Assembly: GCA_050951925.1 (NCBI GenBank)
Contig: JBMNJZ010000001.1
Coordinates: 1,427,015-1,491,014 of the forward strand
Source: Saccharofermentanales bacterium
GTDB lineage: Bacteria > Bacillota > Clostridia > Saccharofermentanales > DTU023
DNA: 64,000 nucleotides
Direction: 5' to 3'
The notes below the pieces were generated by a model that had not been told where the DNA came from, did no database searches, and saw nothing but the letters and a program-made list of their open reading frames with translations. Shown here piece by piece: positions 13,857-50,844 of this stretch. Position numbers and translations under genes: made by a program. How positions within the stretch are numbered: position 1 is the first letter of the stretch; every line of letters starts with the position of its first letter.

Positions 13857-16800
13857 ATTAGGCTCTCTATTTCTATGCGCTGCTTGACCCGGGTTTTCCA
13901 CAAGCCGTGAACAGTACAGAATTCATAGACTTCGGCAGGTTCATTTTTGAGCATAAATTCGATATCGCCTTCATCCTGATCAGGGAAACAAATCTGATAA
14001 CGATTGCCTTGTACCACAGCAACCCAGGTAATTACGCCATCAGCGGCTTGCTCATGATCAGTTCTGGCTTTGACAATGATGCCGCGATCCGTTTTTTCCA
14101 CTAAAGGCGTATGGTCATAAACATCATCACCGGTTGTCTTGGCCTCGAGAAGTTCCATAGGCTCATCACAACATATAAGCTCACCTGCTCCTTCATTCAA
14201 TAGAACAACGAGATTAGCACAGGCATCGCAATAATAGAAACGAATCTTTTTCATATCATTCCCCCTGTCAGAAATATAAGTTATTCCTTCATCCAATATT
14301 TCATCAGTACTGAAAGTTGAATCTTGTGCGGTAATAAAAGCTAAGGACATCTGCTCGCGTTCGGATTTGCGGCGCCGCAAAATATAAATTATTAATTTAA
14401 TCAAAGCTATCATCAACAAAATAGCCAGAGCAATTAGAGTAATCGCGGCACCATCTCTGAAGCCATAGGGCAGGAAGGACATTTCAACAGTATGTTCGCC
14501 CGCTTCCAGCTCCAATGCCATCAGAGAATCATTAACTGTCAGGATAGTCTGAGGCTTACCGCCTACTTCCGCTGTCCAACCGCGGTCATAAGGAATAGTC
14601 AATAAGAGCAAACCGGCTTCGGGCATCGTGATCCTGCCACTAAAATAAGTATCCGAGAAATCTGTCAAGTCAAGCTGCGCCGCTTGCAAACGGTGGAAAC
14701 CGGCGGTAAATGCTTCTTGATCCAATTTTGCAGCATATAATTCAATTTCTCCTGATTTTTCCGCTTTAGCGCTGAGGCTAATCTCAATACTAGCGGTCTG
14801 CCCTGCCTCGAGATAGCCAACTTCCGCATTGCCAATTGCCTTGGCTGAGAAATTGAAGCTTCTGTCTTCGATTGTGATCTTTCCTGAGGAAGTGCGGTGG
14901 CCTCTCATATCGAAGGCCAGATTATAAGTACCCGCCTCAGCCGCTGTTAATAGGAAAGTATAAGTTGGGGTACTGTCATCGGAGTTTTTCTCAAAACTGA
15001 AGATATTATCTGATTCACCATAATAATCAATATTCCCTTGCAGTGCCGGTCCGATTTCAAGCGGCATATCAACGAAAACATCTGAAAACTCAGGATCCAT
15101 GGCGCAGAGCAAGCGATTTTGATTTTCGAGCGGATTTTCACCGGCACTGTCATAATGCAGAACTCCAGAAGATACCTTGTATCCCAAGTTCAAAGCATAG
15201 GGATTTTCCAACGCTTCAACATCATCATTAGACAAAACTAAATACCTATTTGAATCCTGCCAGTAATCCTTGTTGCGCAAGATCAGATAGCGGATGCCGA
15301 ATAAACTATCAAGGACAATATTCGATCCGTCATACTTATAACTGTTAATGCCATTGCTGAATAAACCTAATTCTTTAAAAAAACGAACCGGTTTCTCCGG
15401 AACAGTTGAATCAAAAAGAGTCAGACCCTTTAGGCCATATAGGCAAGGATCATTAGAGGTTTTAGCAGGATAGACCTCAGTACGGAAAAAAGAGGTATCT
15501 TCAGTAAAATCCTCCAACTGTATTGCTGCGGCACGCACCGATTCCGCTACCGGACCGCTGGCATAACCGTCCCGACTGCCAAAATATTCATTTTTATCGA
15601 GATAATAAAGCCCGGTACAAGTGGAAAAAACCGACTCTACAATAATTACGGCAAGTAGCAAAAGAGTCACCGGTCTCCTGCGCTGCTCGGCATCCAACAA
15701 ACGGATAAAAACTACTGTGTACAGCAAAAGAAAAACAATGCTGATTAAAGCGCTGTAACTTGAGGCTTTATTTTCACCCATTTTCTCAACCACGATAATC
15801 AATGCAATCAGGGTAAATGCAAAACAGAAAATAGTCTCCCGTCTTAGCTGTCTAATGCCCGGAAGAGCCTCATATAGAAAGGTCAGGATAACAAAAATAT
15901 AGACAAATGAATTTCTGAAAGGCAGCTGATTGGGATAATGGAAACCATGCCAGATAAAGTTGAGAATATTAGTACTGAAGCTTAAAATCATAAAAGCAAT
16001 AACTGACAGACTAAGAACTCGGTCTCTCAATTTAACCCTTGAGTTCAGAAAAGCAATAGGCAAAAGGAGTAAAACCGGAATTCCCGAATAAAGATTGGGA
16101 AAACCGCTGCGAACCGTAGGCTCAACCAACAAAAGATGTTGGCCGAAATAGTCAAATAAGGTGGCAACTTTCTCAACTGCAGTCGGAAAAGTATCATTCG
16201 CTGCGGAAGTGACCTGCATAGCCAGGTAAGTCGGCCAGAGCATAAAAGCAGAAAGACCTGCGCCCAGTGCGGTAAAAAATACAGTTTTCACTGTGGTCAG
16301 CAACTTTATCAACGGTCTATGTTCCGGCGCGAAACGAAACAAGAACGGAAGGTATAATAATGCAGCCATGAGGCAGACAAACCAGGCCATATAGAAATTG
16401 ACGAATAACAGATAAGCCAAACTCAAAGTATAAAGCCAGAATTTGTTATCCCTGATCAGGTAAACCATTCCCAAAATTACCAACGGCGCCACATATAATG
16501 AATCAAGCCACATGATATTCCAGCTATAAGCAATCACATAGGAAGAAACAGCATACATGGTTGAAAAGCCAACAGCCAGCGGACCATGCTTCCGGAAAGT
16601 TTTTCTAAGGAACATATTAAAAGTAAAGCCTGCCAGAGACAGTTTAATTAATGTCAGCAGTAAAATTCCTTCCGTCAGGAATGCCGCGGGAAAGAGCAAA
16701 AGGATTAAATTTAAGGGGCTGGCCAGATAATATGCGCTCAGAGCATAGAAATTAACTCCCAATCCGCCGGCGAAACTGTAAAATAAACTGTCGCCGCTAA

Positions 16801-39875: not shown

Positions 39876-39962
39876 GCGGAAATGGCGGAATTGGCAGACG
39901 CGCTAGTTTCAGGTACTAGTGATCGATCGATCATGCAGGTTCAAGTCCTGTTTTCCGCACCA
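39876..39962 (+). tRNA. tRNA-Leu (anticodon CAG), long variable arm, CCA encoded
   Basis: Acceptor GCGGAAA/TTTCCGC, anticodon stem CTAGT/ACTAG with loop TTCAGGT, variable stem TGATCG/CGATCA, T-loop TTCAAGT. Confidence 0.88.
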
Positions 39963-40107: not shown

Positions 40108-41715
40108 CTAAACACTGAAATCTGGTGTGTTCTCTCTGCAGTAGGAAACCCAGTTGCCGTTTTCGATTAATTCTTCTCGACCGAGCTGGCGGAACAACTC
40201 CATACGGCTCTGTGGGGCGAGATCGTACCGCAGGGCAGCCGACGCAAAGAGATGTTTCATTTTTTCATGGTCAATGCTCTTTCGAGCCAAGGACTGCTTG
40301 CCGTAGTATCCCGAAACAAAAACCGTCACCGCGGAAAGACTTCCCCATAGAATCTTAATCCAAACTCGCAAAGTAAAACCGGAAAGAACAATCACCATGG
40401 CGTTCCGGAAGAAATACTCCAAAACCAAGGCTAACAGCCAGAGTACTATGGTGCAAGTCAACATGGCGCGGGTAGCGAGTTCCTGGGTACGGTGCTTTCC
40501 GGCATCCCTGCGCTCAGCTCTTTCGTGGTAGGCTCTTTGGCCGTCAATCCAGGCCTTTTTTACCACATCGGCCGGCACGGCTTCCTTTTCCGGAGCGCCG
40601 ATTAAAAGCGCATAGACCGCGCTTTTTACCCACGTGGCATCGTGCTTCTGTGTCCAGGTAAAGTCATCGCAAACACATTCCCTGCTGCCAAGCGCATAAA
40701 GATATAGCTGAACCCGCAAGGCCTCCGCCAGAGCTCTATACTGTAGGTATTTATCGTGCTGCCGCCGGCGCGCAATCTGTTGGTAGAAAAGAGCATATAG
40801 GACTATGGCACCGCCATATCCGATTAGACATATATTGAGCTCGGCCTCATCGTAGAGCAGGTAAAACATCACCAGCATTACGCTGAATGCGGCAAGCACG
40901 CCCATAATCTTTAAGTAGTGTTTCTGCCACTTCATCGAGAGCTGATCCGCCGCATCATATACCTTTTGAAGCCTGTTGCTTACAGCATGATGAATATATT
41001 CCGGAGCTAAGAGCGGTTCGACGTCCTGAAAGCTTTCCTTTCGCACATCTCGGTTAAAGCGATCTGTTTGTGCCAACACTTCCTTCAGGCTCCCCGCTTC
41101 ATTTTCCAGCAAGTTCACCGTAACGGGGAATTCCTGAGTTTTCGATACTCTGGGTGTAGCGATGTGGATTACCGCGCCCTCATTAGAGGGGCGGAACATT
41201 TTGCCGTTCTGATAATCGCCTTTCAACATAAAGTCCACAGCCTCTGCCGTTCCGCATCCATGCTCCGAACCAGGCTCTCCGTTCCACAGCGCAAGCAGTA
41301 CATGGCTGTGAGCAGCCACGTAAATACCTGTCTGGCGATAAAGATTGTCTCGTTCTTCTCCTTCCGGCCCGCTATAAGGAACCACGAACACATCCGCGGC
41401 CTTGTTTCGCAGGGCTTGATACTCTTCCGACTCTTCGGCACTAAAGTCCTTGCGGTACTCCTCTTCGGGCATGGGAAGCGGGCAATAGAGCGGAATTTGC
41501 AGAGAAAACGCCACGCGGGCACAGAGTTGATCTGCCCCCGCCGCCAGTGAATTCAGCATCCAAACAGGAGAATTGGGATGCTTCCGTTGAATCTTTTGTA
41601 ATTCTCCTGAAACGGCATTTTCCAGTGCGGGGATATCCTCCTTACGGATATCCCTGTGGCCGGTAACACCCACCACGATGGGTATTGTGTTCTTGTTTGC
41701 CTGTGTGTCGCTCAT
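40108..41715 (-). CDS. SLOG-domain (YpsA/DprA/LOG-like) protein with a C-terminal four-TM module (SLATT/LSDAT/DUF4231-like)
   Basis: N-terminus has IVVGVTGHRD, LAAGADQL, PLYCPLP and GCGTAEAV, which match the Rossmann-like SLOG pattern of YpsA/LOG. The C-terminal half has two pairs of TM helices, each preceded by an amphipathic helix (KWQKHYLKIMGVL.., WIDGQRAYHERAERR..). Start at MSDTQ, 20 nt after the upstream stop. Confidence 0.6.
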   Translation of the reverse strand: MSDTQANKNTIPIVVGVTGHRDIRKEDIPALENAVSGELQKIQRKHPNSPVWMLNSLAAGADQLCARVAFSLQIPLYCPLPMPEEEYRKDFSAEESEEYQALRNKAADVFVVPYSGPEGEERDNLYRQTGIYVAAHSHVLLALWNGEPGSEHGCGTAEAVDFMLKGDYQNGKMFRPSNEGAVIHIATPRVSKTQEFPVTVNLLENEAGSLKEVLAQTDRFNRDVRKESFQDVEPLLAPEYIHHAVSNRLQKVYDAADQLSMKWQKHYLKIMGVLAAFSVMLVMFYLLYDEAELNICLIGYGGAIVLYALFYQQIARRRQHDKYLQYRALAEALRVQLYLYALGSRECVCDDFTWTQKHDATWVKSAVYALLIGAPEKEAVPADVVKKAWIDGQRAYHERAERRDAGKHRTQELATRAMLTCTIVLWLLALVLEYFFRNAMVIVLSGFTLRVWIKILWGSLSAVTVFVSGYYGKQSLARKSIDHEKMKHLFASAALRYDLAPQSRMELFRQLGREELIENGNWVSYCRENTPDFSV

Positions 41716-41735
41716 TCTTAACGGTCTCTTTTTTA

Positions 41736-43718
41736 TTACATTCTGTAAACAGTCAAGCCGTCGTACCAACGAATGAGCTCCAACATCTTTTCCATGGGCA
41801 CGGCATCCTTGGTTTTTTCCGCTTCTGGCAATTGTTCAAAGGGAACCATATCGTGATGCATGCGGGTACATTCTCGCATGATATTGTCGTTCTTGCCGTT
41901 CGGCAGCTTTCCGACATGGCCGGTACCGAATTGCCAGCCCATATCACTCTTCTCGTCGCACCAGCGCCGGTGCTCCGCTCCGGCGATAACTTCCATATCC
42001 GCAGGAGTAAAATGAGCAACAGTTTCATAGTCTACGGCACGATCAGTATAAAAGCAGTTGATCTTTTCCAGCACGGCGGCAAATCCCTTGGCCTGCGCGA
42101 TATTAGAAAGCTTATACTCAAGAGAAAGATCCTCTTCAAAAGCCCGCACCATATCTTCGGGTGTTCCGGCGCCGCAGTAGCTAGCGTGGAGAGACAGAGC
42201 GAAACGATAGAAGTTCAGATAATTGCTGTCGGAGAGATACAGCCCCGTACGTTTTGCTTTCTCTACCGAAGAAACGGCGATAGTACCGCTGTAATCCGGC
42301 TTTTTTACATCGCTTTCAAACTTGGGGATGATATCACGAAGAGCCACTATCTCGTCGATATCATCTAAAAACTTACTGCGATGCTCTCGCACGGCACCGG
42401 ACTTTTTGATATAGCCGCCGCTGAGCATATTCTGATAGTCTTTACTGTCGAGGGTTCTGTCCTTGTAGGCCTTGTCGTAAAAAAAAGTCCACGTTACGCT
42501 ATCCTCCGACGGGAATACCATGTCGAAATCAAAGGCGTAAATATCGCTGCGGGTATTTTGGCCGTAAGAAGCACGATCCCAGCACTGCAGTTCGTCACAA
42601 AGTATCAAAAGGTAGGCCAGTGGTTGACCGTCCTTAAGACGCAAAGGCTCGTCGGTATAAAGAAAGCTCCGCATGGTGAACTGAAAAAGGCTGTTATGCA
42701 GAATTATGGCGCAAAAACTATCAAGCACGGCTTTCGGGATTTGCTCCAAGCTTTCGATTTCCCGATGACGATTTAGATAAGTCTTCGCCAACACCAGACC
42801 GCTGAAATAAGCATGGTCCATGTAGAGATAGTCCTTCTCCGCCGGGTTCTCGTGAACCGCACGATCTTTAAGAGCTTTTTCCAACTTGTGGCGGCAAAGA
42901 TAGGGCTCGGCCTCCGTGCGGGATAGATAACTTTCGGCCAAGCGTTCAGTAATGGCGTGAGCGTAAAAATCGTTCAAGTCTCCTAAACGAGACATGCTGA
43001 ATTCGTCCATGCGCTTATACGACACATAGGGAGCGAAACCTCTGTCATCGTTGTTATTTTTATCTAACTTACACACATAGGCTTTCATCTGCTGATGAGC
43101 GATTTCAAAGGGATAGCCTATGTCGTGGAAGAGACTGGTCATTCCCCAAAACTCCAGGAAGTGACAGGCCGCTTCCCGCCCTTCCTCAAGGCAGAAGCGA
43201 GCATTATAGGCTTCTCGAAAAAGCCGGTGGTTTTTGTAGATGGAAAGACCTATGCAAAATACATATACACTGTGAGAATAATGGTCACGGTGCCTCATCA
43301 GAAGAGAGCTTGCATTATACTCGTGTTCCGAGAGCATCTCCAACAGAATTCCGGTAGCATCATAACCGGCTCCGAAGGGCTCAAAAATTTCGCAGTAACA
43401 GTAGTAGATGTCAAAAGCGTCTTCCCGTGAACCACTGTCCAAAAAACGACCGATGGCCTGCTCAAAGCTGAGGCGGTCCAAATCGCGTTCCATGTTGAAG
43501 GGAATCCGGCTACGACCGCTGCTACGGCCGTCTAAGTCGTTCAGTTCATGGCGGGAAGGATCAAACTTTAAGTCTTCGCAGCAATCCCGCAGGAAAGACA
43601 GGGAATCCTGCCCGTAACTGCTGCGGCACTGAGGCAGCGGCGGAATAAGCACGGTATCGAAAAGACCGTACTGATCCCGATTTTTCTTTTGCATCTTTTC
43701 CAGGGCACGATAAGCCAT
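41736..43718 (-). CDS. HD-domain phosphohydrolase with a C-terminal RyR (ryanodine-receptor repeat, PF02026-like) domain
   Basis: HD ligand pattern: RHRDHYSHSVYV ... LFHDIGYPFE ... IILHN ... LCDELQCWDR. The C-terminus AEHRRWCDEKSDMGWQFG...HHDMVPFEQLPEAEKTKD matches the RyR-domain consensus (He.W...GW.yG...hp.lvpyeeLpe.ek.kD). Start at MAYRALE (SD AGGAGA), 11 nt after the upstream stop. Confidence 0.65.
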   Translation of the reverse strand: MAYRALEKMQKKNRDQYGLFDTVLIPPLPQCRSSYGQDSLSFLRDCCEDLKFDPSRHELNDLDGRSSGRSRIPFNMERDLDRLSFEQAIGRFLDSGSREDAFDIYYCYCEIFEPFGAGYDATGILLEMLSEHEYNASSLLMRHRDHYSHSVYVFCIGLSIYKNHRLFREAYNARFCLEEGREAACHFLEFWGMTSLFHDIGYPFEIAHQQMKAYVCKLDKNNNDDRGFAPYVSYKRMDEFSMSRLGDLNDFYAHAITERLAESYLSRTEAEPYLCRHKLEKALKDRAVHENPAEKDYLYMDHAYFSGLVLAKTYLNRHREIESLEQIPKAVLDSFCAIILHNSLFQFTMRSFLYTDEPLRLKDGQPLAYLLILCDELQCWDRASYGQNTRSDIYAFDFDMVFPSEDSVTWTFFYDKAYKDRTLDSKDYQNMLSGGYIKKSGAVREHRSKFLDDIDEIVALRDIIPKFESDVKKPDYSGTIAVSSVEKAKRTGLYLSDSNYLNFYRFALSLHASYCGAGTPEDMVRAFEEDLSLEYKLSNIAQAKGFAAVLEKINCFYTDRAVDYETVAHFTPADMEVIAGAEHRRWCDEKSDMGWQFGTGHVGKLPNGKNDNIMRECTRMHHDMVPFEQLPEAEKTKDAVPMEKMLELIRWYDGLTVYRM

Positions 43719-43729
43719 GTTTTCTCCTA

Positions 43730-44710
43730 TCAGTTCATAACTTCTACTGTAAACGGAGCATTCTCCGGAATCTCCACCGGGAAAATATTTGCCATTATGC
43801 ATACAGTCTCCAGCTCTGCGCAATAAAGCAAAGGTTCCAGAGTTTCCAATTCCCCGCCGGCTATGCTAATTTTGCGAAGTTGAGGGAAATACTGCATGTA
43901 TTTAAGCAGCTCCTCGTTGCAATTATTAAGCCAAATCTCATCATTTGAACAGGTTGTCAAATTCTCGTAGGTCAGAGGTGTCTCCTGGCCCCAATCGTAA
44001 AAGCCAATGGCATCATATAGCATCTCCCGGGTCTTTTCCGACTCAAAGACTATCTCTTCCGTCAGCTTTTGATTGGTCTGCTCAAAGATACCGTGGGTAA
44101 TGACATTGGATCCCATCTGTACCACTTCTTTCGGCTCCGGCTGCTCTGCAAGCGCCACCGGCGCAAGGCCGGGGAGCATATCGTTGAACCAACCGTTATT
44201 CAGGCCGTAGACACCTGTGCCAAGTGCGATTATGAGGCAGACCGCAACGGCGATGATAGCTGTCCAGAAGTTACCCTTCTTTGCGGTACCGACACCTCGT
44301 TCATAGCCGGTGACTCCATCGCCTATGAGGACATCGTCCAGCAAGGCTCGAAGCTCTGCGTATTCCTTAACGGTCTCACATCCGGAAAGCTTGGGATGGA
44401 CTTTATCCCCCAGGGTAAACTGATATACTGGGCGAGTATCCGCTCCGGCGTGCACCACTTCGTTTTCGCAGTTGGGAGAGATTAAGGATTCTTCCGACAC
44501 AAACACCAATACCGCGGAGGCGGCGCGGAGGTGATCTTCTATGTTCTTCGGCCATTCACTGCCCGGGGCTATGCCTTCGTCATACCAGAGCCTATATTTC
44601 TCGGAAAAAAGGGCTTCGATTATGGGCATCACCTTTTCGGAATTCCGGTGGGCATAGCTTACGAAGATATATGGCTCGCGGCCTTCATAAGCGGGAATAC
44701 GTTCACTCAT
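43730..44710 (-). CDS. TIR domain - single TM - extracytoplasmic domain with short LRR-like C-terminus
   Basis: N-terminus matches the TIR_2 pattern: PYIFVSYAHRNSEK...RLWYDEGIAPGSEW...AVLVFVSEESLISPNCENEVVHA. TM is FWTAIIAVAVCLIIALGTGVYGL with Lys on the N-side. The C-terminus has L..L..I.I-type repeats. Start at MSERIP (SD AAAGGAGGG). Confidence 0.7.
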   Translation of the reverse strand: MSERIPAYEGREPYIFVSYAHRNSEKVMPIIEALFSEKYRLWYDEGIAPGSEWPKNIEDHLRAASAVLVFVSEESLISPNCENEVVHAGADTRPVYQFTLGDKVHPKLSGCETVKEYAELRALLDDVLIGDGVTGYERGVGTAKKGNFWTAIIAVAVCLIIALGTGVYGLNNGWFNDMLPGLAPVALAEQPEPKEVVQMGSNVITHGIFEQTNQKLTEEIVFESEKTREMLYDAIGFYDWGQETPLTYENLTTCSNDEIWLNNCNEELLKYMQYFPQLRKISIAGGELETLEPLLYCAELETVCIMANIFPVEIPENAPFTVEVMN

Positions 44711-44726
44711 TTTATTCTGCCCTCCT

Positions 44727-45593
44727 TTAGTGTTCCACAACGACAGTGATTCCGGCATTGCATAGATCGCGGGCGAAGATCACTTGGTCTTGGCTGATTT
44801 TTACGATTTCAATACCCTTAACCTGCGCAAGCGGCCACAGGGCTACATTTGAGGGAATATCCGAAACATTTACCGTGGTAGCGGATACTTCTTTGATGTT
44901 TAGGAGTGTGGTAAAAGTTCCGCCCGAGAGGTCGAGTTCACCCACAGCTTTTCCCGCCATGGCGGCAATGCCCTCGTCGCTGTATTTGGCTATATTCACA
45001 TATTTGCTTCCATTCGTGTTCTGCAGAATGTATGCTGCCGACGTGCGCTCACGTATCATCGAGCCAACATACAGGGCAAAGACCAGTACGACTACTGCCA
45101 CCATAGCAGCTATGATGTAATTTCGCTTGCGGTTGAATTTGCGTTTTTCCATGCCTTCGCCTACCATGGCCTGAGTCAGCACCCCGCTTTTAGTTAAGGC
45201 TTCCGCCGTTTCCTCAGGGCTGCCAAGGGCAATCACCGGAATGTTGGCAAGCTGCATGTCCAGGCCGTAGCCGAGCTGAAATTCTCCAAATTTTACACAG
45301 ACAAGGGGCTTTCGCAGGCTCAACAGGTAGTTGATGGCATTGCGGAAGGCGAGGCTTTCTATGCTCTTTTCCGACAGGAACACCACCGCTCCGCTGCAGT
45401 GAGTTATGGTCTCCGCCAGTGCCGCGGGGCTTTGAGCGAACTTGCCGCCGCAACTATCGCAGCTCAGCCTAAAACCGCGGCTCACAAGAATATCCGCAAC
45501 AGCCGCCGCCGCAGGCTCATCGGCCGGACTACAACCTATATAGGCAAAATCGCCTATACCTGCATAGGGAAGATAGCTAAAGTGCTTTTTCAT
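44727..45593 (-). CDS. Degenerate TIR-like domain - single TM - small extracytoplasmic LRR-like domain
   Basis: Same architecture and spacing as its neighbours (DFAYIGCSPADE...AVVFLSEKSIESLAFRNAINYL). TM is YIIAAMVAVVVLVFALYVGSMI, preceded by KRKFNRKRN. Start at MKKHFS (SD AAGGAGAG). Confidence 0.5.
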   Translation of the reverse strand: MKKHFSYLPYAGIGDFAYIGCSPADEPAAAAVADILVSRGFRLSCDSCGGKFAQSPAALAETITHCSGAVVFLSEKSIESLAFRNAINYLLSLRKPLVCVKFGEFQLGYGLDMQLANIPVIALGSPEETAEALTKSGVLTQAMVGEGMEKRKFNRKRNYIIAAMVAVVVLVFALYVGSMIRERTSAAYILQNTNGSKYVNIAKYSDEGIAAMAGKAVGELDLSGGTFTTLLNIKEVSATTVNVSDIPSNVALWPLAQVKGIEIVKISQDQVIFARDLCNAGITVVVEH

Positions 45594-45604
45594 ATTATCT
45601 CTCC

Positions 45605-47203
45605 TTAGTTGTAGTAGTAGTTGTCGCAATACTCGATGACAAAATGTGCGTCTTGCAACTGTTCATCAGCCAGCTCTCTCATATCTGATGAGATAATCAG
45701 GCGTCGCAGAGACTGAAGTTGCTGAACAGGAGTCAGGTCGCTTAGATTCTGACAGAAATGTATGTCCAGAATATCTATACCCTCAAAGAGCTCCAAGCCA
45801 TCCAAAGAGGATACTGTACTCCAGCCTAAACTTAGTACACCACCGAGATTGATAACAATACCGCTCAATTCCCGCAAAGAGTCTATTTGCAGGCCTTGCC
45901 ATGAAAACTCACGGATGGGTTTTCCTTCTATATATGGCAATACGGCCTGCAATTCATCCTGATCAACAAAAAGCTTATCAAAACTCTCTATATCGCCAAG
46001 CGAAGAATACTCATCTATCTGCGTCTCCCTGATATCAAGATGGATGTATGGAAGAGTATTAAGAGCGGGAAGCTTGCTAACCGGGGCAGCGTTTATAATA
46101 AGGCAGTTCAGCTTATTTGCCGTACTCAGCGCTGAAATGTCCCTCACATTGGTAGCACCTATGTTCAGGTGCTCAAGCTTTGATAGCCTTTCGACACCCG
46201 AAATGTCGGAGACGTAAGTCGCATCCAACATAACGAACACAAGATTTTGGCAGTCCCACAGCGGCGAGGGATCGGTAATATCTGTGGCGGTAAGGAAGAT
46301 GGCTTCCAGATTGCTGAGTGCCCCTATTCCCTCTATAGAAGAAATGGGGTTGGCGCTCAGGTCGAGATAGCTAAGTTTTTTCAAGCAAAACAAGGGTGAA
46401 ATATCGGTAATTTGGTTGCCGCAGATGCAAAGGTATTCCAAATTGGGCATATACGAGAAGATTTCAAGATCTTCGGAAGTCAGGCTGCCCACCGGGACAG
46501 GTCCTTGAACTTCCATATTGTCGTTTACGCTCATACCAAATTGAACAGCACTACGATCGCTGAACTCATACCAGCCGTGAACAAGACTGCCGTATGCCCG
46601 GTCTCCCACAATATAGAGTTCCGTAATGCTCTCTAAATCTTCTCTGGTCAAGCCCCAGCGCTGTGCCGCATTCTCGAGCGCCTTGGCGGGAGCAATAAGC
46701 AGAGGATTCACAACAGCAAAGAACAAAATTACTGCAGCTACAATTGGCGCCGTCACCATTGTGATGGCACGATTGCGCTGATATTTCTTCTGGGCCTTGG
46801 TTACGGCCATATCTCGGAAAATGAAAGCTTCTTTCAGCTTGGAGACAAAAGCCTCGTCCATGTTGTCCGCGAACAGCGCCTGCTGGCTGCCGAGCTGCAT
46901 GGTGCTCCAAGGCGTAGAGGGGATATCTTCCAAATATACACTGAGTATTTTCTGTCCGCGGGCAACAGCCGTATCCACTATGGAGCGAAAGCGTTCGCTT
47001 GCGGAGAACTCCGCCGTAACGAATAGCAGCACGCCGAAGGCCCGTTGCAAGCGCCCTTTTTCGCGGCGGTCGAAGCGGTCCGCGTACCAGAATTGTGCGC
47101 CATCTACGGCCAAAGTTTCCAGCACCGGAAGAATCTGTTCCTCTTGTTCCCGCGGGAATGCAACATAGATATAGGGTCTGTCATTTTTGCAGTAGCGTTC
47201 CAT
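45605..47203 (-). CDS. TIR-like domain - single TM - leucine-rich-repeat (internalin-type, 22-aa period) ectodomain
   Basis: N-terminus: PYIYVAFPREQEE...QFWYADRF...VLLFVTAEFSASERF. TM at aa 146-171, preceded by KAQKKYQRNR. From aa ~252 there are at least 7 consecutive 22-residue repeats of L..L..L.L....I.DISPL type. SD is AGGAGGGAATC. Confidence 0.7.
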   Translation of the reverse strand: MERYCKNDRPYIYVAFPREQEEQILPVLETLAVDGAQFWYADRFDRREKGRLQRAFGVLLFVTAEFSASERFRSIVDTAVARGQKILSVYLEDIPSTPWSTMQLGSQQALFADNMDEAFVSKLKEAFIFRDMAVTKAQKKYQRNRAITMVTAPIVAAVILFFAVVNPLLIAPAKALENAAQRWGLTREDLESITELYIVGDRAYGSLVHGWYEFSDRSAVQFGMSVNDNMEVQGPVPVGSLTSEDLEIFSYMPNLEYLCICGNQITDISPLFCLKKLSYLDLSANPISSIEGIGALSNLEAIFLTATDITDPSPLWDCQNLVFVMLDATYVSDISGVERLSKLEHLNIGATNVRDISALSTANKLNCLIINAAPVSKLPALNTLPYIHLDIRETQIDEYSSLGDIESFDKLFVDQDELQAVLPYIEGKPIREFSWQGLQIDSLRELSGIVINLGGVLSLGWSTVSSLDGLELFEGIDILDIHFCQNLSDLTPVQQLQSLRRLIISSDMRELADEQLQDAHFVIEYCDNYYYN

Positions 47204-47247: not shown

Positions 47248-47282
47248 GTATGATATTATCATACATGCTTTCTGTCTTACAA
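47248..47282 (-). promoter_or_regulatory. Predicted promoter of the island operon with an overlapping perfect palindrome (operator candidate)
   Basis: Minus strand: TTGTAA (47282-47277), 18 nt, TG-n-TAATAT (47258-47253). The 17-nt palindrome GTATGATA-N-TATCATAC (47248-47264) covers the -10. Confidence 0.45.
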
Positions 47283-47550: not shown

Positions 47551-48129
47551 ATGAAAAAGTTAAGCTGTTTGATTGCTCTGTTGCTTGCCTTCTTCATGCT
47601 CCTGCCTTTTACAGGCTGCAAGCAAAATTCGCCTGCAGGATCAGATAACAAGGTATCCGGTTCACCTGCCGCAAACGATTCTTCCATCGTATCCGAACCG
47701 AAGGATAGTTCTGAGCCGGCGCTTCCGGCGGAACCGTCCTTTGTCAAGCACAATTCCATTCAATCCGCACTTCCGTCACCTGGAGATGCCACAGTAACAA
47801 TGACCGGCGACGAGACTATTGATCTGACCGGCATCCCGCTTGCGGGGCGCAAGGAAATCATTTTGGACGGCCACATACTGACATTGACTGGAGCTTACGG
47901 TATTTCAGCGGATGCAGTTTTGGATATCAAGCCGGGCAATGGCACAAACGGAGGTACGCTTAACATGGCGGGTATGACATTTGACTTCGGCTTCCTTGAC
48001 GGAGAGCTTCCTCCCGAAAAGGCACTCGTGGAGATACGCCCCGGCGTAACGATAGTCGAACCGGAATACCCGGAAGGTGTCAGCATAAGGGAGTTCCCGG
48101 GCGTATTGACAGTCATTCAATGTGATTAA
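47551..48129 (+). CDS. Predicted secreted lipoprotein of unknown function
   Basis: Signal peptide with lipobox LPFTGC, Ser/Pro-rich linker, small Gly/Thr-rich C-terminal domain. Divergent from the TIR operon. Confidence 0.6.
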   Translation: MKKLSCLIALLLAFFMLLPFTGCKQNSPAGSDNKVSGSPAANDSSIVSEPKDSSEPALPAEPSFVKHNSIQSALPSPGDATVTMTGDETIDLTGIPLAGRKEIILDGHILTLTGAYGISADAVLDIKPGNGTNGGTLNMAGMTFDFGFLDGELPPEKALVEIRPGVTIVEPEYPEGVSIREFPGVLTVIQCD

Positions 48130-48315: not shown

Positions 48316-50844
48316 TTGAAAGGAAGAATCACCTTGGCTGCTAAAGATACATTGCTTGTCAGCAAAATCTCGGTTCGCCAACTGGTTGCCGGCGCAAGAA
48401 AAACCGGCAGCCTGACCAACCCCAGCTATAGCTCCGCCCGGGCCGCGGATGGTATTAAAGCACATAAGAAATTTGTCAATTTGATGGCGGAACAAATTGA
48501 TAATCCTGATCTGTTCAGCGAATTTTCTTTAGAAACATCTTTTACCACAGAAATTTGCGGTTTGCAGTATCGATTGGAGATCTCAGGTCGTTGCGACCTC
48601 TGGTACCCGGACCGGGATGGTCCATGCCTAATTGAGATCAAAAGTTATCGCGGACAAGAGCGTGCTGAGAATGAGTCCGGGAATTCATTGCACTGGGCTC
48701 AGGCGGAAACTTATGCTTATATGCTCCTGCAAAAAGTTCCTGCCCTGCAAAACTGCAGAAAGATACGTGTCTGTTTAGCTTATGTTGCAGTAGATAGCAA
48801 TGATTATTATTTAATCGAACGAGCATTCGATTCGCCCGCTCTGAAGAAAAAATTCACAGATCTCTGTACCGGCTGGCTGCAAAATACTGTCAGCCTGATA
48901 GATTACCGGAAGACTAGAAATCTTGTGAATGCTGCTGGGGGCTTCCCCTATGACAATCTGCGTGAAGGCCAACGCTTTTTTATGCGGCAGGCAATTGCGG
49001 CTATGCGCGATCGCAGCACTTTATTTGCCCAAGCTGCTACAGGCAGTGGCAAAACAATGGCGGTAGTTTATCCTGCGTTAAAAGCGCAGGCAGCCGGACT
49101 CGGTTCAGTCATCTTCTATCTGACAAATATGTCGTCAACGAAATTGATAGCAGAACAGGCTATTGCCGATTTAAGACAGAATGGCTTTCTGGTACGCAGT
49201 CTCACTTTGACTGCCAAAGAAAAAATTTGTCTGCAACCAGATCTCTACTGCGAAATGAAGATTTGCCCTTATGCTCAGGACTATTATGAAAGATTGCCCT
49301 CCGCTCTCCTGGAGCTGGCATCCATAAAAATGGCGGATCACGATACGATTATAGAGATTGCGCAGAAGCATAGACTGTGTCCTTTTGAGTTGCAGCTGGA
49401 CTTTTCTGAATGGTGCGACATTGTGATCGGCGACTACAATTATCTTTTTGATCCTCGCGTTTATCTGAGCAGATTTTTTGCCGACGACAATAAGGATGCG
49501 CATATTATCCTGATCGATGAAGCCCATAATTTGCCGGCAAGGTCACGACAGATGTACAGCTCCTTCCTGGAGCTTTCCGCTTTACGCCGAGTTGAGCAAC
49601 TGCTGTCGGCACCTGACATCGCCGATCTGGGACCCACTAAACATGCTTTGAACCGCCTTCGTCAAATAATTGGCTGTTTAGATGGGCTTCTGCCTTATTT
49701 GCGCGACCTTGGATTGCAGTTCGCGGATCAAAATTTATTGGGTACGAAAATTAACCAACAGGAACTGCTGCGCACGGAACGGTTCATTGGAGCCAGAAAA
49801 CCTTTGGCGAATTTTATCAGCAATATAGGTTCTTTAGTCTATGCTTTAGGGCAGTTTCTGGATTGCTTCCCGGAATGGGAGTCGCGGCGTACCGTGCTGG
49901 AACTTTGGTTTGAGCTGAATTTTTTCCTGCGCGTAGCTGAATCCTACTATGACAAAAACTATATCACTATGATCCGTCAAACTGCACCAGACGATCTGAC
50001 GATCGGCTTGCTATGTCTGGATGCGGCCAAAAGTCTTACAAACAGATATTATCGACGCTATCCGATAATCTTTTTCTCTGCGACTTTGAGTCCTGCCTCT
50101 TACTACCAGAGGTTGCTATATTCTTATATGACAGAAAATCCACCGGATTTTCTTCAGCTCGCTTCGCCCTTCGCGTCGCGAAACAGATTTGTGCTTACAG
50201 TTGATCATTATTCTGTTCGCTATCAAGATAGAGCAAATACTCTTTTCCCTATTTTGCGTTTAATTTACCAAGCGGTTCAAATCAGACCAGGACATTATCT
50301 CGTATTTTGCCCGTCATTTGTTTATTTGCGGCAAGTAGCTCAGGCACTGAAACAAATTAACATCTCAGAGGAATGGCAAATTATGATCCAGAAACCTAAA
50401 CTCAGCGAGCAAGAAAAAAACAAATGGTTGGATCGCTTCCGCAACACAGGCGGTAAACCACTATTAGCTTTTGCCTGTCTCGGCAGTATTTTTAGCGAAG
50501 GGATTGATCTAATCGGAGAGCAATTAATTGGCGTGTTTGTTATTGGCACCGGTCTGCCCCGTCCCTCACCGGAACGTGAGCTGATGCGCCAATATTACGA
50601 GCAGGAATTCGGCAGTGGTTTTCACTTTGCCTATACTTTCCCCGGTTTTAATCGGGTTATGCAGGCTGCCGGCCGGCTAATCCGCCATGAGGACGACCGG
50701 GGAATAATCATTCTGATTGATGATCGCTATTCACGTGAAGATTATCGGGAAATTATCCCGACTGACTGGTTGGCGCAATCTGTTCATGATGATGAGGAAA
50801 CATTAGCCTTGATCACAGAATTCTGGGACTGTCAATTGACCTAA
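48316..50844 (+). CDS. DinG/XPD-family (Rad3-like) SF2 helicase with an N-terminal PD-(D/E)xK RecB/Cas4-like nuclease domain
   Basis: N-terminus has GRCD...IEIKS plus QAETYAY (the D/ExK and QxxxY motifs). Then Walker A AATGSGKT, four Cys (CLQPDLYCEMKICP...LCPFE, FeS-type), DEAHNL box and C-terminal helicase motifs (QAAGRLIR). Start is uncertain: TTG at 48316 or TTG at 48334. Confidence 0.75.
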   Translation: MKGRITLAAKDTLLVSKISVRQLVAGARKTGSLTNPSYSSARAADGIKAHKKFVNLMAEQIDNPDLFSEFSLETSFTTEICGLQYRLEISGRCDLWYPDRDGPCLIEIKSYRGQERAENESGNSLHWAQAETYAYMLLQKVPALQNCRKIRVCLAYVAVDSNDYYLIERAFDSPALKKKFTDLCTGWLQNTVSLIDYRKTRNLVNAAGGFPYDNLREGQRFFMRQAIAAMRDRSTLFAQAATGSGKTMAVVYPALKAQAAGLGSVIFYLTNMSSTKLIAEQAIADLRQNGFLVRSLTLTAKEKICLQPDLYCEMKICPYAQDYYERLPSALLELASIKMADHDTIIEIAQKHRLCPFELQLDFSEWCDIVIGDYNYLFDPRVYLSRFFADDNKDAHIILIDEAHNLPARSRQMYSSFLELSALRRVEQLLSAPDIADLGPTKHALNRLRQIIGCLDGLLPYLRDLGLQFADQNLLGTKINQQELLRTERFIGARKPLANFISNIGSLVYALGQFLDCFPEWESRRTVLELWFELNFFLRVAESYYDKNYITMIRQTAPDDLTIGLLCLDAAKSLTNRYYRRYPIIFFSATLSPASYYQRLLYSYMTENPPDFLQLASPFASRNRFVLTVDHYSVRYQDRANTLFPILRLIYQAVQIRPGHYLVFCPSFVYLRQVAQALKQINISEEWQIMIQKPKLSEQEKNKWLDRFRNTGGKPLLAFACLGSIFSEGIDLIGEQLIGVFVIGTGLPRPSPERELMRQYYEQEFGSGFHFAYTFPGFNRVMQAAGRLIRHEDDRGIIILIDDRYSREDYREIIPTDWLAQSVHDDEETLALITEFWDCQLT

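Follow-up and report, generated by a model that had tools for sequence, protein, structure and literature searches.

Whether a bacterial TIR domain can be governed by an event outside the cell is the question raised by a block of five close-packed genes in the genome of a Saccharofermentanales bacterium (contig JBMNJZ010000001.1 of assembly GCA_050951925.1, positions 1,427,015 to 1,491,014). Open reading frame (ORF) calling on this stretch of 64,000 nucleotides, hereafter the window, placed the genes, named g1 to g5, at 40108-47203 on the minus strand; all coordinates given here are window positions, and the five genes and their domains are read on that strand. The first three genes encode paralogous proteins that join an N-terminal TIR or TIR-like domain to C-terminal leucine-rich repeats (LRRs) through one transmembrane helix, the fourth encodes a protein with an HD-like N-terminal domain and a C-terminal RyR domain, and the fifth a protein with an N-terminal SLOG domain and a four-helix membrane region of SLATT type. 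The interpretation favoured here, with somewhat better than even confidence, is that the locus is a mobile, Thoeris-like TIR signalling system of five genes with a membrane-spanning sensor, and that it most likely protects the cell from phage or some other attacker outside it.

Three paralogous TIR proteins with one transmembrane helix each

The first-pass annotation of the window described three adjacent paralogs on the minus strand at 43730-47203, and ORFs are present at exactly these positions: g1 (47203..45605, 532 residues), g2 (45593..44727, 288 residues) and g3 (44710..43730, 326 residues). Start codons were chosen as ATG with an upstream ribosome-binding site of the form AGGAGG, AAGGAG, AAGGAGG or TAGGAG, that of g1 being AGGAGG. 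The paralogy is borne out by hhalign, in which the family profiles of the three proteins are mutually homologous over the TIR domain, the transmembrane helix and the first LRRs (99.3-99.7%, E 5e-20 to 3e-25), the g1 and g3 families aligning at 99.3% (E 5e-20) and the g2 and g3 families at 99.7% (E 3e-25).

A TIR domain had been proposed for all three proteins, a claim that stands for the fold, on the evidence of Pfam, hhalign, AlphaFold2 and Foldseek, and that for the catalytic pattern stands in g3 only. The TIR domain of g3 (residues 1-128) matches Pfam TIR_2 at 5e-15, and the AlphaFold2 model of the protein (pLDDT 86.3) matches solved TIR domains with a Foldseek probability of 1.0, among them those of SPARTA, TLR15, RUN1, MyD88, BtpA, BcThsB and AbTir. 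In g2 the domain (residues 1-135) is recognised by Pfam TIR_2 at 4.7e-4 and by its alignment to g3, and the g2 family profile finds ThsB (9uv0) in the PDB at 0.006. No direct Pfam TIR match was found for g1; its TIR-like domain (46799..47203, residues 1-135) is modelled by AlphaFold2 (pLDDT 89.7) as five strand-helix units with the same alternation of strands and helices as in g3, and one member (P0031) of the g1 family alignment, A4, of 32 sequences has a Pfam TIR_2 match.

The three domains differ at one position. In g3, Glu84 (codon 44459..44461, checked against the DNA) is the predicted catalytic glutamate of the motif S78-P-N-C-E-N-E84, and it is presumed to be equivalent to the glutamate of NAD-cleaving TIR domains (BcThsB E85, RUN1 E100) through the S-x-W-C-x-x-E motif. 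It is invariant in the 53 sequences of the g3 family, together with S72, C81 and W42-Y-D-E-G, and the segment RVWYDEGIAPGSEWP is highly conserved across the same family. Among the trio the S-x-x-C-x-x-E pattern is intact in g3 only: the position aligned to E84 is occupied by isoleucine, valine or alanine in the g1 family (I76 in g1) and by a variable small residue, and not by glutamate, in g2. The trio therefore probably combines one enzyme-type TIR domain (g3) with two inactive, degenerate ones (g1 and g2) and, since the latter lack the catalytic glutamate, a division into one enzyme subunit and two adaptor or sensor subunits is suggested.

Each protein contains one hydrophobic 19-residue segment with a Kyte-Doolittle score of 2.5-2.7, at residues 147-165 in g1 (46709..46765, score 2.63, with KAQKKYQRNR just before it), 160-178 in g2 (45060-45116) and 152-170 in g3 (44201-44257). 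The position of the segment is conserved across 110 homologs of the three proteins, none of which has an N-terminal signal-like segment. Lysine and arginine in the 15-residue flanks number 5, 6 and 3 on the N-terminal side of the segment in g1, g2 and g3, against 1, 2 and 0 on the C-terminal side, and the N-terminal excess recurs in 31 of 32 g1, 20 of 25 g2 and 47 of 53 g3 family sequences. In the AlphaFold2 models of g1 and g3 a long isolated helix lies between two domains, in g1 as a single continuous helix over residues 136-182. Because there is a single helix, the TIR end and the LRR end must be separated by the membrane. A crude calculation of hydropathy and charge, together with the modelled helix, points to type II single-pass proteins with the TIR domain in the cytoplasm and the LRRs outside, so that the basic cluster before each helix and the sidedness that the first-pass annotation had deduced from it are both upheld by the families.

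The ectodomain of g1 is a long LRR solenoid (45608..46474, residues 244-532) of about 12-13 internalin-type repeats, six of them canonical, with 22 residues, and some six others degenerate; a beta-rich cap (46475-46648, residues 186-243) comes before it. The three repeats quoted in the first-pass annotation are found without change at residues 252-317, and the assignment of the whole region agrees with Pfam (LRR_4 6e-17, LRR_8 8e-12, LRR_EndoS 1e-10) and with the AlphaFold2 model, in which 13 strands follow the beta cap at a spacing of about 22 residues. Foldseek matches this model to the internalin InlA (1o6v, 1.1e-11) and also to InlF (4fmz) and a Roco LRR (E ~1e-11). The shorter LRR-like segments noticed at the ends of the two smaller proteins proved to be internalin-type as well, with about three repeats each. 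In g2 the segment spans 44730-45026 (residues 190-288), and the family profile matches LRR proteins of the PDB at 5e-9. In g3 a short capped LRR spans 43733-44065 (residues 216-326), the profile matches internalin and Roco LRRs of the PDB at 1e-15 and aligns to the cap and first repeats of InlA and InlB, and several g3 homologs carry Pfam LRR_4.

Putative readers of a TIR signal in the same operon

Beyond the three genes of the first-pass annotation, the block continues downstream with g4 (43718..41736, 660 residues) and g5 (41715..40108, 535 residues). The genes from g1 to g5 are spaced by gaps or overlaps of no more than 25 nucleotides, and a single transcript of all five, that is, one operon, is thereby suggested. 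Two overlapping promoter-like sites lie on the minus strand 45-80 nucleotides upstream of the g1 start (47250..47282), each a 9/12 match to the consensus and recognised by that match only. The two added genes provide a plausible downstream pathway and connect the locus with signalling of the Thoeris type.

The C-terminal domain of g4 (41754-42011, residues 570-655) is a RyR domain, the family profile matching RyR repeat12 of the PDB (6uhi) at 4.8e-31. Its invariant residues include H583, W586, G594, W595 and D638. The RyR-domain (PF02026) proteins of phages, including RyDEP, bind or cleave 2'- or 3'-cyclic ADP-ribose (cADPR) by means of a conserved set of His, Trp, His and Asp (PMC13232231). 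The shared motif suggests that the corresponding His, Trp, His and Asp of g4 match H75, W78, H100 and D117 of RyDEP. The likeness lies in the single RyR repeat at the end of g4, in which H..W, GW, H and D are conserved; the differences are that g4 is encoded by the host, that its RyR domain is fused to an HD-like region of about 560 residues, and that it is linked to TIR genes and does not oppose them. Probably g4 is a sensor or a signal-terminating module. The N-terminal region of about 560 residues contains invariant H146/H149, H198-D199 (in 'LFHDIGYP'), D301-H302, H341 and D375, and on these motifs, at 42579-43301 (residues 140-380), it is provisionally labelled HD-like; hhalign against the HD protein encoded elsewhere in the window aligned only the HD motif itself.

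The g4 family is large. A profile search returned 2098 matches at E<=0.001, and the best 120 cluster representatives, mostly of 650-720 residues and 55-90% identity, are all annotated as hypothetical. Six genomic contexts of g4 homologs were sampled. In four of them the neighbours of g4 include TIR proteins whose sensor repeats are of other kinds (TIR-TM-LRR, that is, TIR, transmembrane helix and LRRs in one chain, or LRR_5, WD40, or FHA-PP2C with a kinase), and in two a nearby TIR gene is absent. A SLOG-only protein lies beside g4 in at least three of the six, and two more neighbours, of 546 and 248 residues, were not compared with g5. One context (L091:4724-14822) has the g4 homolog flanked by a 1030-residue TIR-WD40 protein and a 1586-residue DUF4062-WD40 protein, and because of these neighbours the HD-like/RyR module is taken to pair with several kinds of repeat-bearing TIR sensor. 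In another (L088:9001-18743) the genes after the g4 homolog encode a TIR-LRR_5 protein that lacks a transmembrane helix, a TIR-FHA-PP2C protein, a 1094-residue Ser/Thr kinase and a SLOG-only protein that is 50% identical to residues 11-221 of g5, a set that links the TIR module to phospho-signalling genes.

In g5 the SLOG domain (41041-41688, residues 10-225) is followed by the SLATT-type region (40336-40968, residues 250-460) with its four hydrophobic helices. Among the 22 members of the g5 family, 19 match DUF4231/SLATT (best 1e-6), 10 match YAcAr SLOG (best 7e-6), one matches YpsA and one SLATT_3. Single-sequence searches of g4 and g5 against the PDB gave nothing useful, nor did the g5 family profile, and because of this the SLOG assignment rests on the YAcAr and YpsA Pfam matches of the homologs.

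Distribution, variation and genomic setting

A survey for the TIR-TM-LRR architecture, which the first-pass annotation had advised, found related sets in at least 63 loci. Homolog contexts, together with the scanning of 185,579 species genomes, yielded 86 loci (L001-L086), which were analysed by ORF calling of our own and HMMER searches; nearly all belong to uncultured Bacillota that live in gut, rumen or digesters. The g1-g2-g3 trio is present in about 25 of them, in that order in nearly all (L006 has g2-g3-g1), in Clostridia, Erysipelotrichaceae and Anaerovoracaceae. About 38 further loci contain related sets, in which a g3-like TIR-TM-LRR protein of 370-430 residues accompanies at least one g1-like protein and sometimes a giant LRR protein (930-1857 residues). 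The layout itself is more widespread: an exhaustive profile search returned 1026 cluster representatives at E<=1e-30, and at least 79 of the top 150 have an N-terminal TIR domain, a single transmembrane helix and LRRs, many of them as single chains of 640-780 residues.

The g1 gene is the fast-evolving member of the trio, variable in copy number and in length. It occurs in one to five copies per locus, g2 and g3 being single, and close g1 homologs are 81-87% identical in the TIR domain and 62-66% in the LRRs. The LRR lengths span 470-1857 residues. One locus with four g1 copies (L002) carries a mazE/mazF (PemK) toxin-antitoxin pair at 14518-15068 between two g1-paralog sets. Giant TIR-TM-LRR proteins of 1287-1857 residues (L067:11551-17124, also L036 and L043) consist almost wholly of LRR, and it is a matter of speculation that such a protein, if extended, could span a Gram-positive cell wall.

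The association with putative readers was counted in the 30 loci whose flanking DNA extends for at least 4 kb on both sides. RyR, SLOG or SLATT genes lie beside the TIR genes in 19 of these, namely seven of 15 loci of the trio type, 10 of 12 with a giant LRR protein and two of three others. They occur in several combinations, as full g4 and g5, as g4 with a SLOG-only protein (L001, L005), and as a standalone SLATT_1 protein with an 80-residue RyR protein (L006, L025), the SLATT protein of L006 passing SLATT_1 at 1.5e-22. Across all 86 loci a RyR ORF is present in 41. Two loci (L003:15179-16657 and L015:14301-15782) have beside g4/g5 a protein of about 492 residues, not encoded in the window, with a multi-helix membrane N-terminus, a C-terminal TIR domain and a weak NCBIfam match to the Thoeris type III protein ThcB4 (0.004). 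In two Dysgonomonadaceae metagenome-assembled genomes, outside the Bacillota (L075:3341-5746 and L081:7601-9955), an AAA+ ATPase-RyR protein of about 790 residues stands beside a single-chain TIR-TM-LRR protein of about 720 residues.

The genomic neighbours of the system differ from locus to locus in every case. In the window the cassette at 40108-47203 has a GC content of about 0.50, the flanking DNA one of 0.41-0.44, and a tRNA-Leu(CAG) gene lies at 39876-39962 on the plus strand, 145 nucleotides past the g5 stop; both features fit an inserted island, and a search for att-like direct repeats at the cassette boundaries found none. The varying neighbours, the atypical GC content and the adjacent tRNA-Leu gene speak for horizontal mobility of the five-gene system. 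An origin from phage was rejected on account of the single weak match in a collection of viral contigs.

The surroundings in the window are housekeeping genes (PNPase, CCA-adding enzyme, Mur ligase, RecO, YbeY-Era). On the plus strand, a divergent ORF of 192 residues at 47551-48129 has a lipoprotein signal (LPFTGC) but neither a Pfam match nor, among the 86 related loci, a homolog. It is followed at 48316-50844 by a protein of 842 residues in which an N-terminal PD-(D/E)XK (Cas4-like) nuclease is fused to a DinG-type helicase (PADLOC typeIV_DinG, 1.3e-108). This gene adjoins recO, is not kept beside other TIR-LRR loci and probably encodes a housekeeping repair helicase. Neither this helicase gene nor the lipoprotein ORF nor the adjacent Mur ligase gene has counterparts in the other loci, and all three were excluded as parts of the system.

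A Thoeris-like pathway and its alternatives

Several features of the locus recall Thoeris. A catalytic-type TIR gene (g3) adjoins, in the same operon, a gene that fuses SLOG to a membrane module (g5); several TIR paralogs share one operon, as in type III, which has several TIR proteins and a SLOG effector; sensor and effector are both built of modular parts; and a TIR-made signal derived from ADP-ribose (ADPR) would be expected to activate an effector. The SLOG domain of ThsA binds 3'cADPR, the SLATT protein of type VII Thoeris (ThsH) is an effector that responds to canonical cADPR, and 'SLOG and 4TM' is a catalogued, unvalidated class of Thoeris effector (Yirmiya et al., bioRxiv 10.64898/2025.12.03.692087). 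The architecture of g5 is that of the 'SLOG and 4TM' class; in type I Thoeris, ThsA is a SIR2-SLOG protein. In contrast to Thoeris, the TIR proteins of this locus are anchored in the membrane with extracellular LRRs, two of the three lack the catalytic glutamate, and there is an extra partner, the HD-like/RyR protein g4. Neither RyR nor LRR appears in the text or supplementary tables of the same study (bioRxiv 10.64898/2025.12.03.692087), and a limited literature search found no earlier description of bacterial TIR-LRR receptors in the membrane, nor any of TIR genes partnered by HD-like/RyR proteins.

The trio also resembles Toll-like receptors (TLRs), which combine an LRR ectodomain, one transmembrane helix and, in the cytoplasm, a TIR domain. 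The first-pass annotation had noted this domain logic in a type II orientation, and each of its three elements has now been checked, the sidedness being taken from the charge bias. A heteromeric use is plausible, with a variable ligand chain and invariant co-receptor chains, as in TLRs and in the IL-1 receptor with its accessory protein. However, the order is reversed, TLRs being type I proteins and the trio type II with an N-terminal TIR domain and no signal peptide; the LRRs are of the bacterial 22-residue internalin type; and the g3 TIR domain retains its enzymatic glutamate, for which reason a role as adaptor alone is unlikely. A gene for a MyD88-like adaptor was not seen in the locus. Given that the LRRs are of the bacterial internalin type, the resemblance is regarded as convergent: the TIR-TM-LRR architecture was almost certainly assembled independently of TLRs, and the relation is one of analogy and not of orthology. 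As to the internalins themselves, the class 1 proteins (InlA, InlB, InlF, InlH) share the 22-residue LRR solenoid with its cap and give the best structure and sequence matches. They differ in that the trio has no signal peptide, inter-repeat Ig domain, or LPXTG or GW anchor, its LRRs being tethered by an N-terminal signal-anchor helix joined to a TIR domain, and NCBIfam internalin models reach 67-77 bits against cut-offs of 1050-1600. Detection of attack at the envelope is also a property of Zorya (ZorAB) and Kiwa (KwaA), membrane-located phage sensors that are unrelated proteins with no TIR, LRR or nucleotide signalling.

Building on the observed domain architecture, charge bias and gene linkage, the following pathway, from heteromer and ligand gating to signal and outputs, is proposed. 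The proteins g1, g2 and g3 would form a hetero-oligomeric membrane receptor in which the long LRR domain of g1 is the ligand sensor and g2 and g3 are invariant co-receptors. A ligand, or a disturbance of the envelope outside the membrane, would rearrange or cluster the cytoplasmic TIR domains, the dead TIR domains of g1 and g2 serving as scaffolds that complete the active site of g3, which would then cleave NAD+ to a messenger of cADPR type, derived from ADPR. The RyR domain of g4 would read this messenger and turn on the HD-like hydrolase; g5 would read it through its SLOG domain, and the SLATT membrane module would open or assemble. Growth arrest or cell death may be the outcome. Most likely, the pathway would serve to defend the cell from phage or other attackers that it senses at its surface. 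Activation gated by an extracellular ligand is plausible. The bolder form of this proposal, that g1-g2-g3 is a true prokaryotic transmembrane pattern-recognition receptor, whose LRRs bind a ligand such as a phage particle, the weapon of a competitor or a piece of cell wall and whose TIR-TIR rearrangement, like that of TLRs, yields an NAD-derived messenger read by RyR and by a SLOG-gated module, is advanced only tentatively and is itself rather doubtful.

Several observations weigh against a Thoeris-like defence system. To our knowledge, the known bacterial TIR systems (Thoeris, SPARTA and the TIR effectors of CBASS and Pycsar) sense cytoplasmic events, and sensing outside the cell would be unusual for TIR systems. 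Curated Thoeris models fail to recognise the locus: g3 matches PADLOC ThsB1 at only 0.0019, ThsA gives no match, and none of the five proteins matches the NCBIfam type III models (ThcA/ThcB). The scores of g5 itself are low (DUF4231 0.001, NCBIfam SLATT_3 3.6e-6), and its SLOG and SLATT matches fall below the curated cut-offs. For an HD fold in g4 there was no Pfam match in 25 family members and no profile match in the PDB, the motifs standing alone. In eight of the 15 flanked trio-type loci, RyR, SLOG and SLATT genes are all lacking within ~10 kb, and these loci share no conserved neighbour. Among 147 neighbour proteins from 63 loci there is no clear enrichment of known defence genes, the generic PADLOC matches being mad3 (6), AriA (2), SoFic (1) and Csx1 (1), counted with no background control. 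Finally, 2.9 million viral contigs gave one weak match, and from that collection the system is essentially absent.

These points leave room for other explanations, and the eight loci that stand alone bear directly on one of them. Because they lack RyR, SLOG and SLATT, it appears that the trio can work without linked g4 and g5; it may in such cases deplete NAD+ by itself or use unlinked partners. By extension, the trio everywhere could be a self-contained NAD-cleaving switch in which g3 depletes NAD+, as in SPARTA, CBASS and Pycsar, with no messenger and with g4 and g5 optional or separate. The absence of partners from about half of the fully flanked trio-type loci is what such a switch predicts, and NAD-depleting SPARTA TIR domains are among the best Foldseek matches of g3. 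It is nonetheless considered unlikely: RyR, SLOG or SLATT genes are directly adjacent in 19 of the 30 flanked loci and in several modular forms, the gene spacing in the window suggests that all five genes share an operon, and ligand-responsive RyR, SLOG and SLATT modules make little sense without a signal. A messenger could, on the other hand, serve an end other than immunity. In such outside-in signalling an environmental, host or cell-cell cue (the state of the wall, neighbours, gut polymers) would be sensed, and the TIR nucleotide would be an ordinary second messenger for a SLOG-SLATT channel and an HD hydrolase. The lack of a defence-island signal in the 147 neighbours, the location of the systems among housekeeping genes, the single match in the viral contigs, the high conservation of g4 (55-90% identity over more than 100 clusters), the FHA-PP2C and Ser/Thr kinase signalling genes in some g4 contexts and the typically surface-binding nature of internalin-type LRRs would all accord with this. 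Yet the distribution is patchy, the genomic position variable and the GC content atypical; the paralog expansion, the extreme variation in LRR length and an ectodomain that evolves faster than the TIR domain also speak against it, and the SLATT and TIR proteins known to date come from conflict systems. A non-immune role is accordingly judged improbable, and it stays a serious rival because of the missing defence-island signal, the failure of the Thoeris models and the near-absence from viral contigs.

Two further explanations carry much less weight. Were the proteins surface adhesins, the LRRs would bind host or substrate, the helix would be a mere signal-anchor and the TIR domains a non-enzymatic oligomerisation platform, which would suit LRRs closest to those of InlA, InlF and InlH and the loss of the catalytic residue from two of the three TIR domains. 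Such a role is very unlikely in view of the glutamate and surrounding motif of g3, invariant in 53 sequences, the lack of both a signal peptide and an LPXTG motif, and the tight gene link to RyR, SLOG and SLATT. Hardly any credence is given to an error of topology, in which the hydrophobic segment does not span the membrane or the N-terminus lies outside, and the LRRs would be cytoplasmic as in sensors of the plant TIR-NLR type. The TIR-LRR_5 and TIR-WD40 partners of g4 do lack a transmembrane helix, but the trio itself has a 19-residue segment scoring 2.5-2.7 in all three proteins, kept in position in 110 homologs with an excess of lysine and arginine on the TIR side, and in the AlphaFold2 models a long isolated helix divides two domains. 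For the N-terminus to lie outside, a folded TIR domain of 145 residues would have to be exported without a signal peptide and away from NAD+, its cytoplasmic substrate, which is implausible.

If the Thoeris-like membrane system proposed here is correct, the locus would show outside-in signalling through a bacterial TIR domain for the first time, a process that the trio makes directly testable, and would be a striking functional convergence with Toll-like receptors. If the trio is, beyond that, a true pattern-recognition receptor, one operon would join the logic of TLRs to the cADPR and ADPR signalling that acts on RyR and on TRPM2-type channels, and would supply a bacterial context for RyR domains that bind cADPR-like ligands. 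The linkage of RyR and TIR genes in the host complements the finding on phage RyR domains and cADPR, and suggests that RyR is an ancient cADPR sensor. The combination of one active and two inactive TIR domains offers a natural model for the origin of adaptor-type TIR domains from enzymatic ones. Such systems are common in uncultured Clostridia of gut, rumen and digesters, where the catalogues of defence systems are thin.

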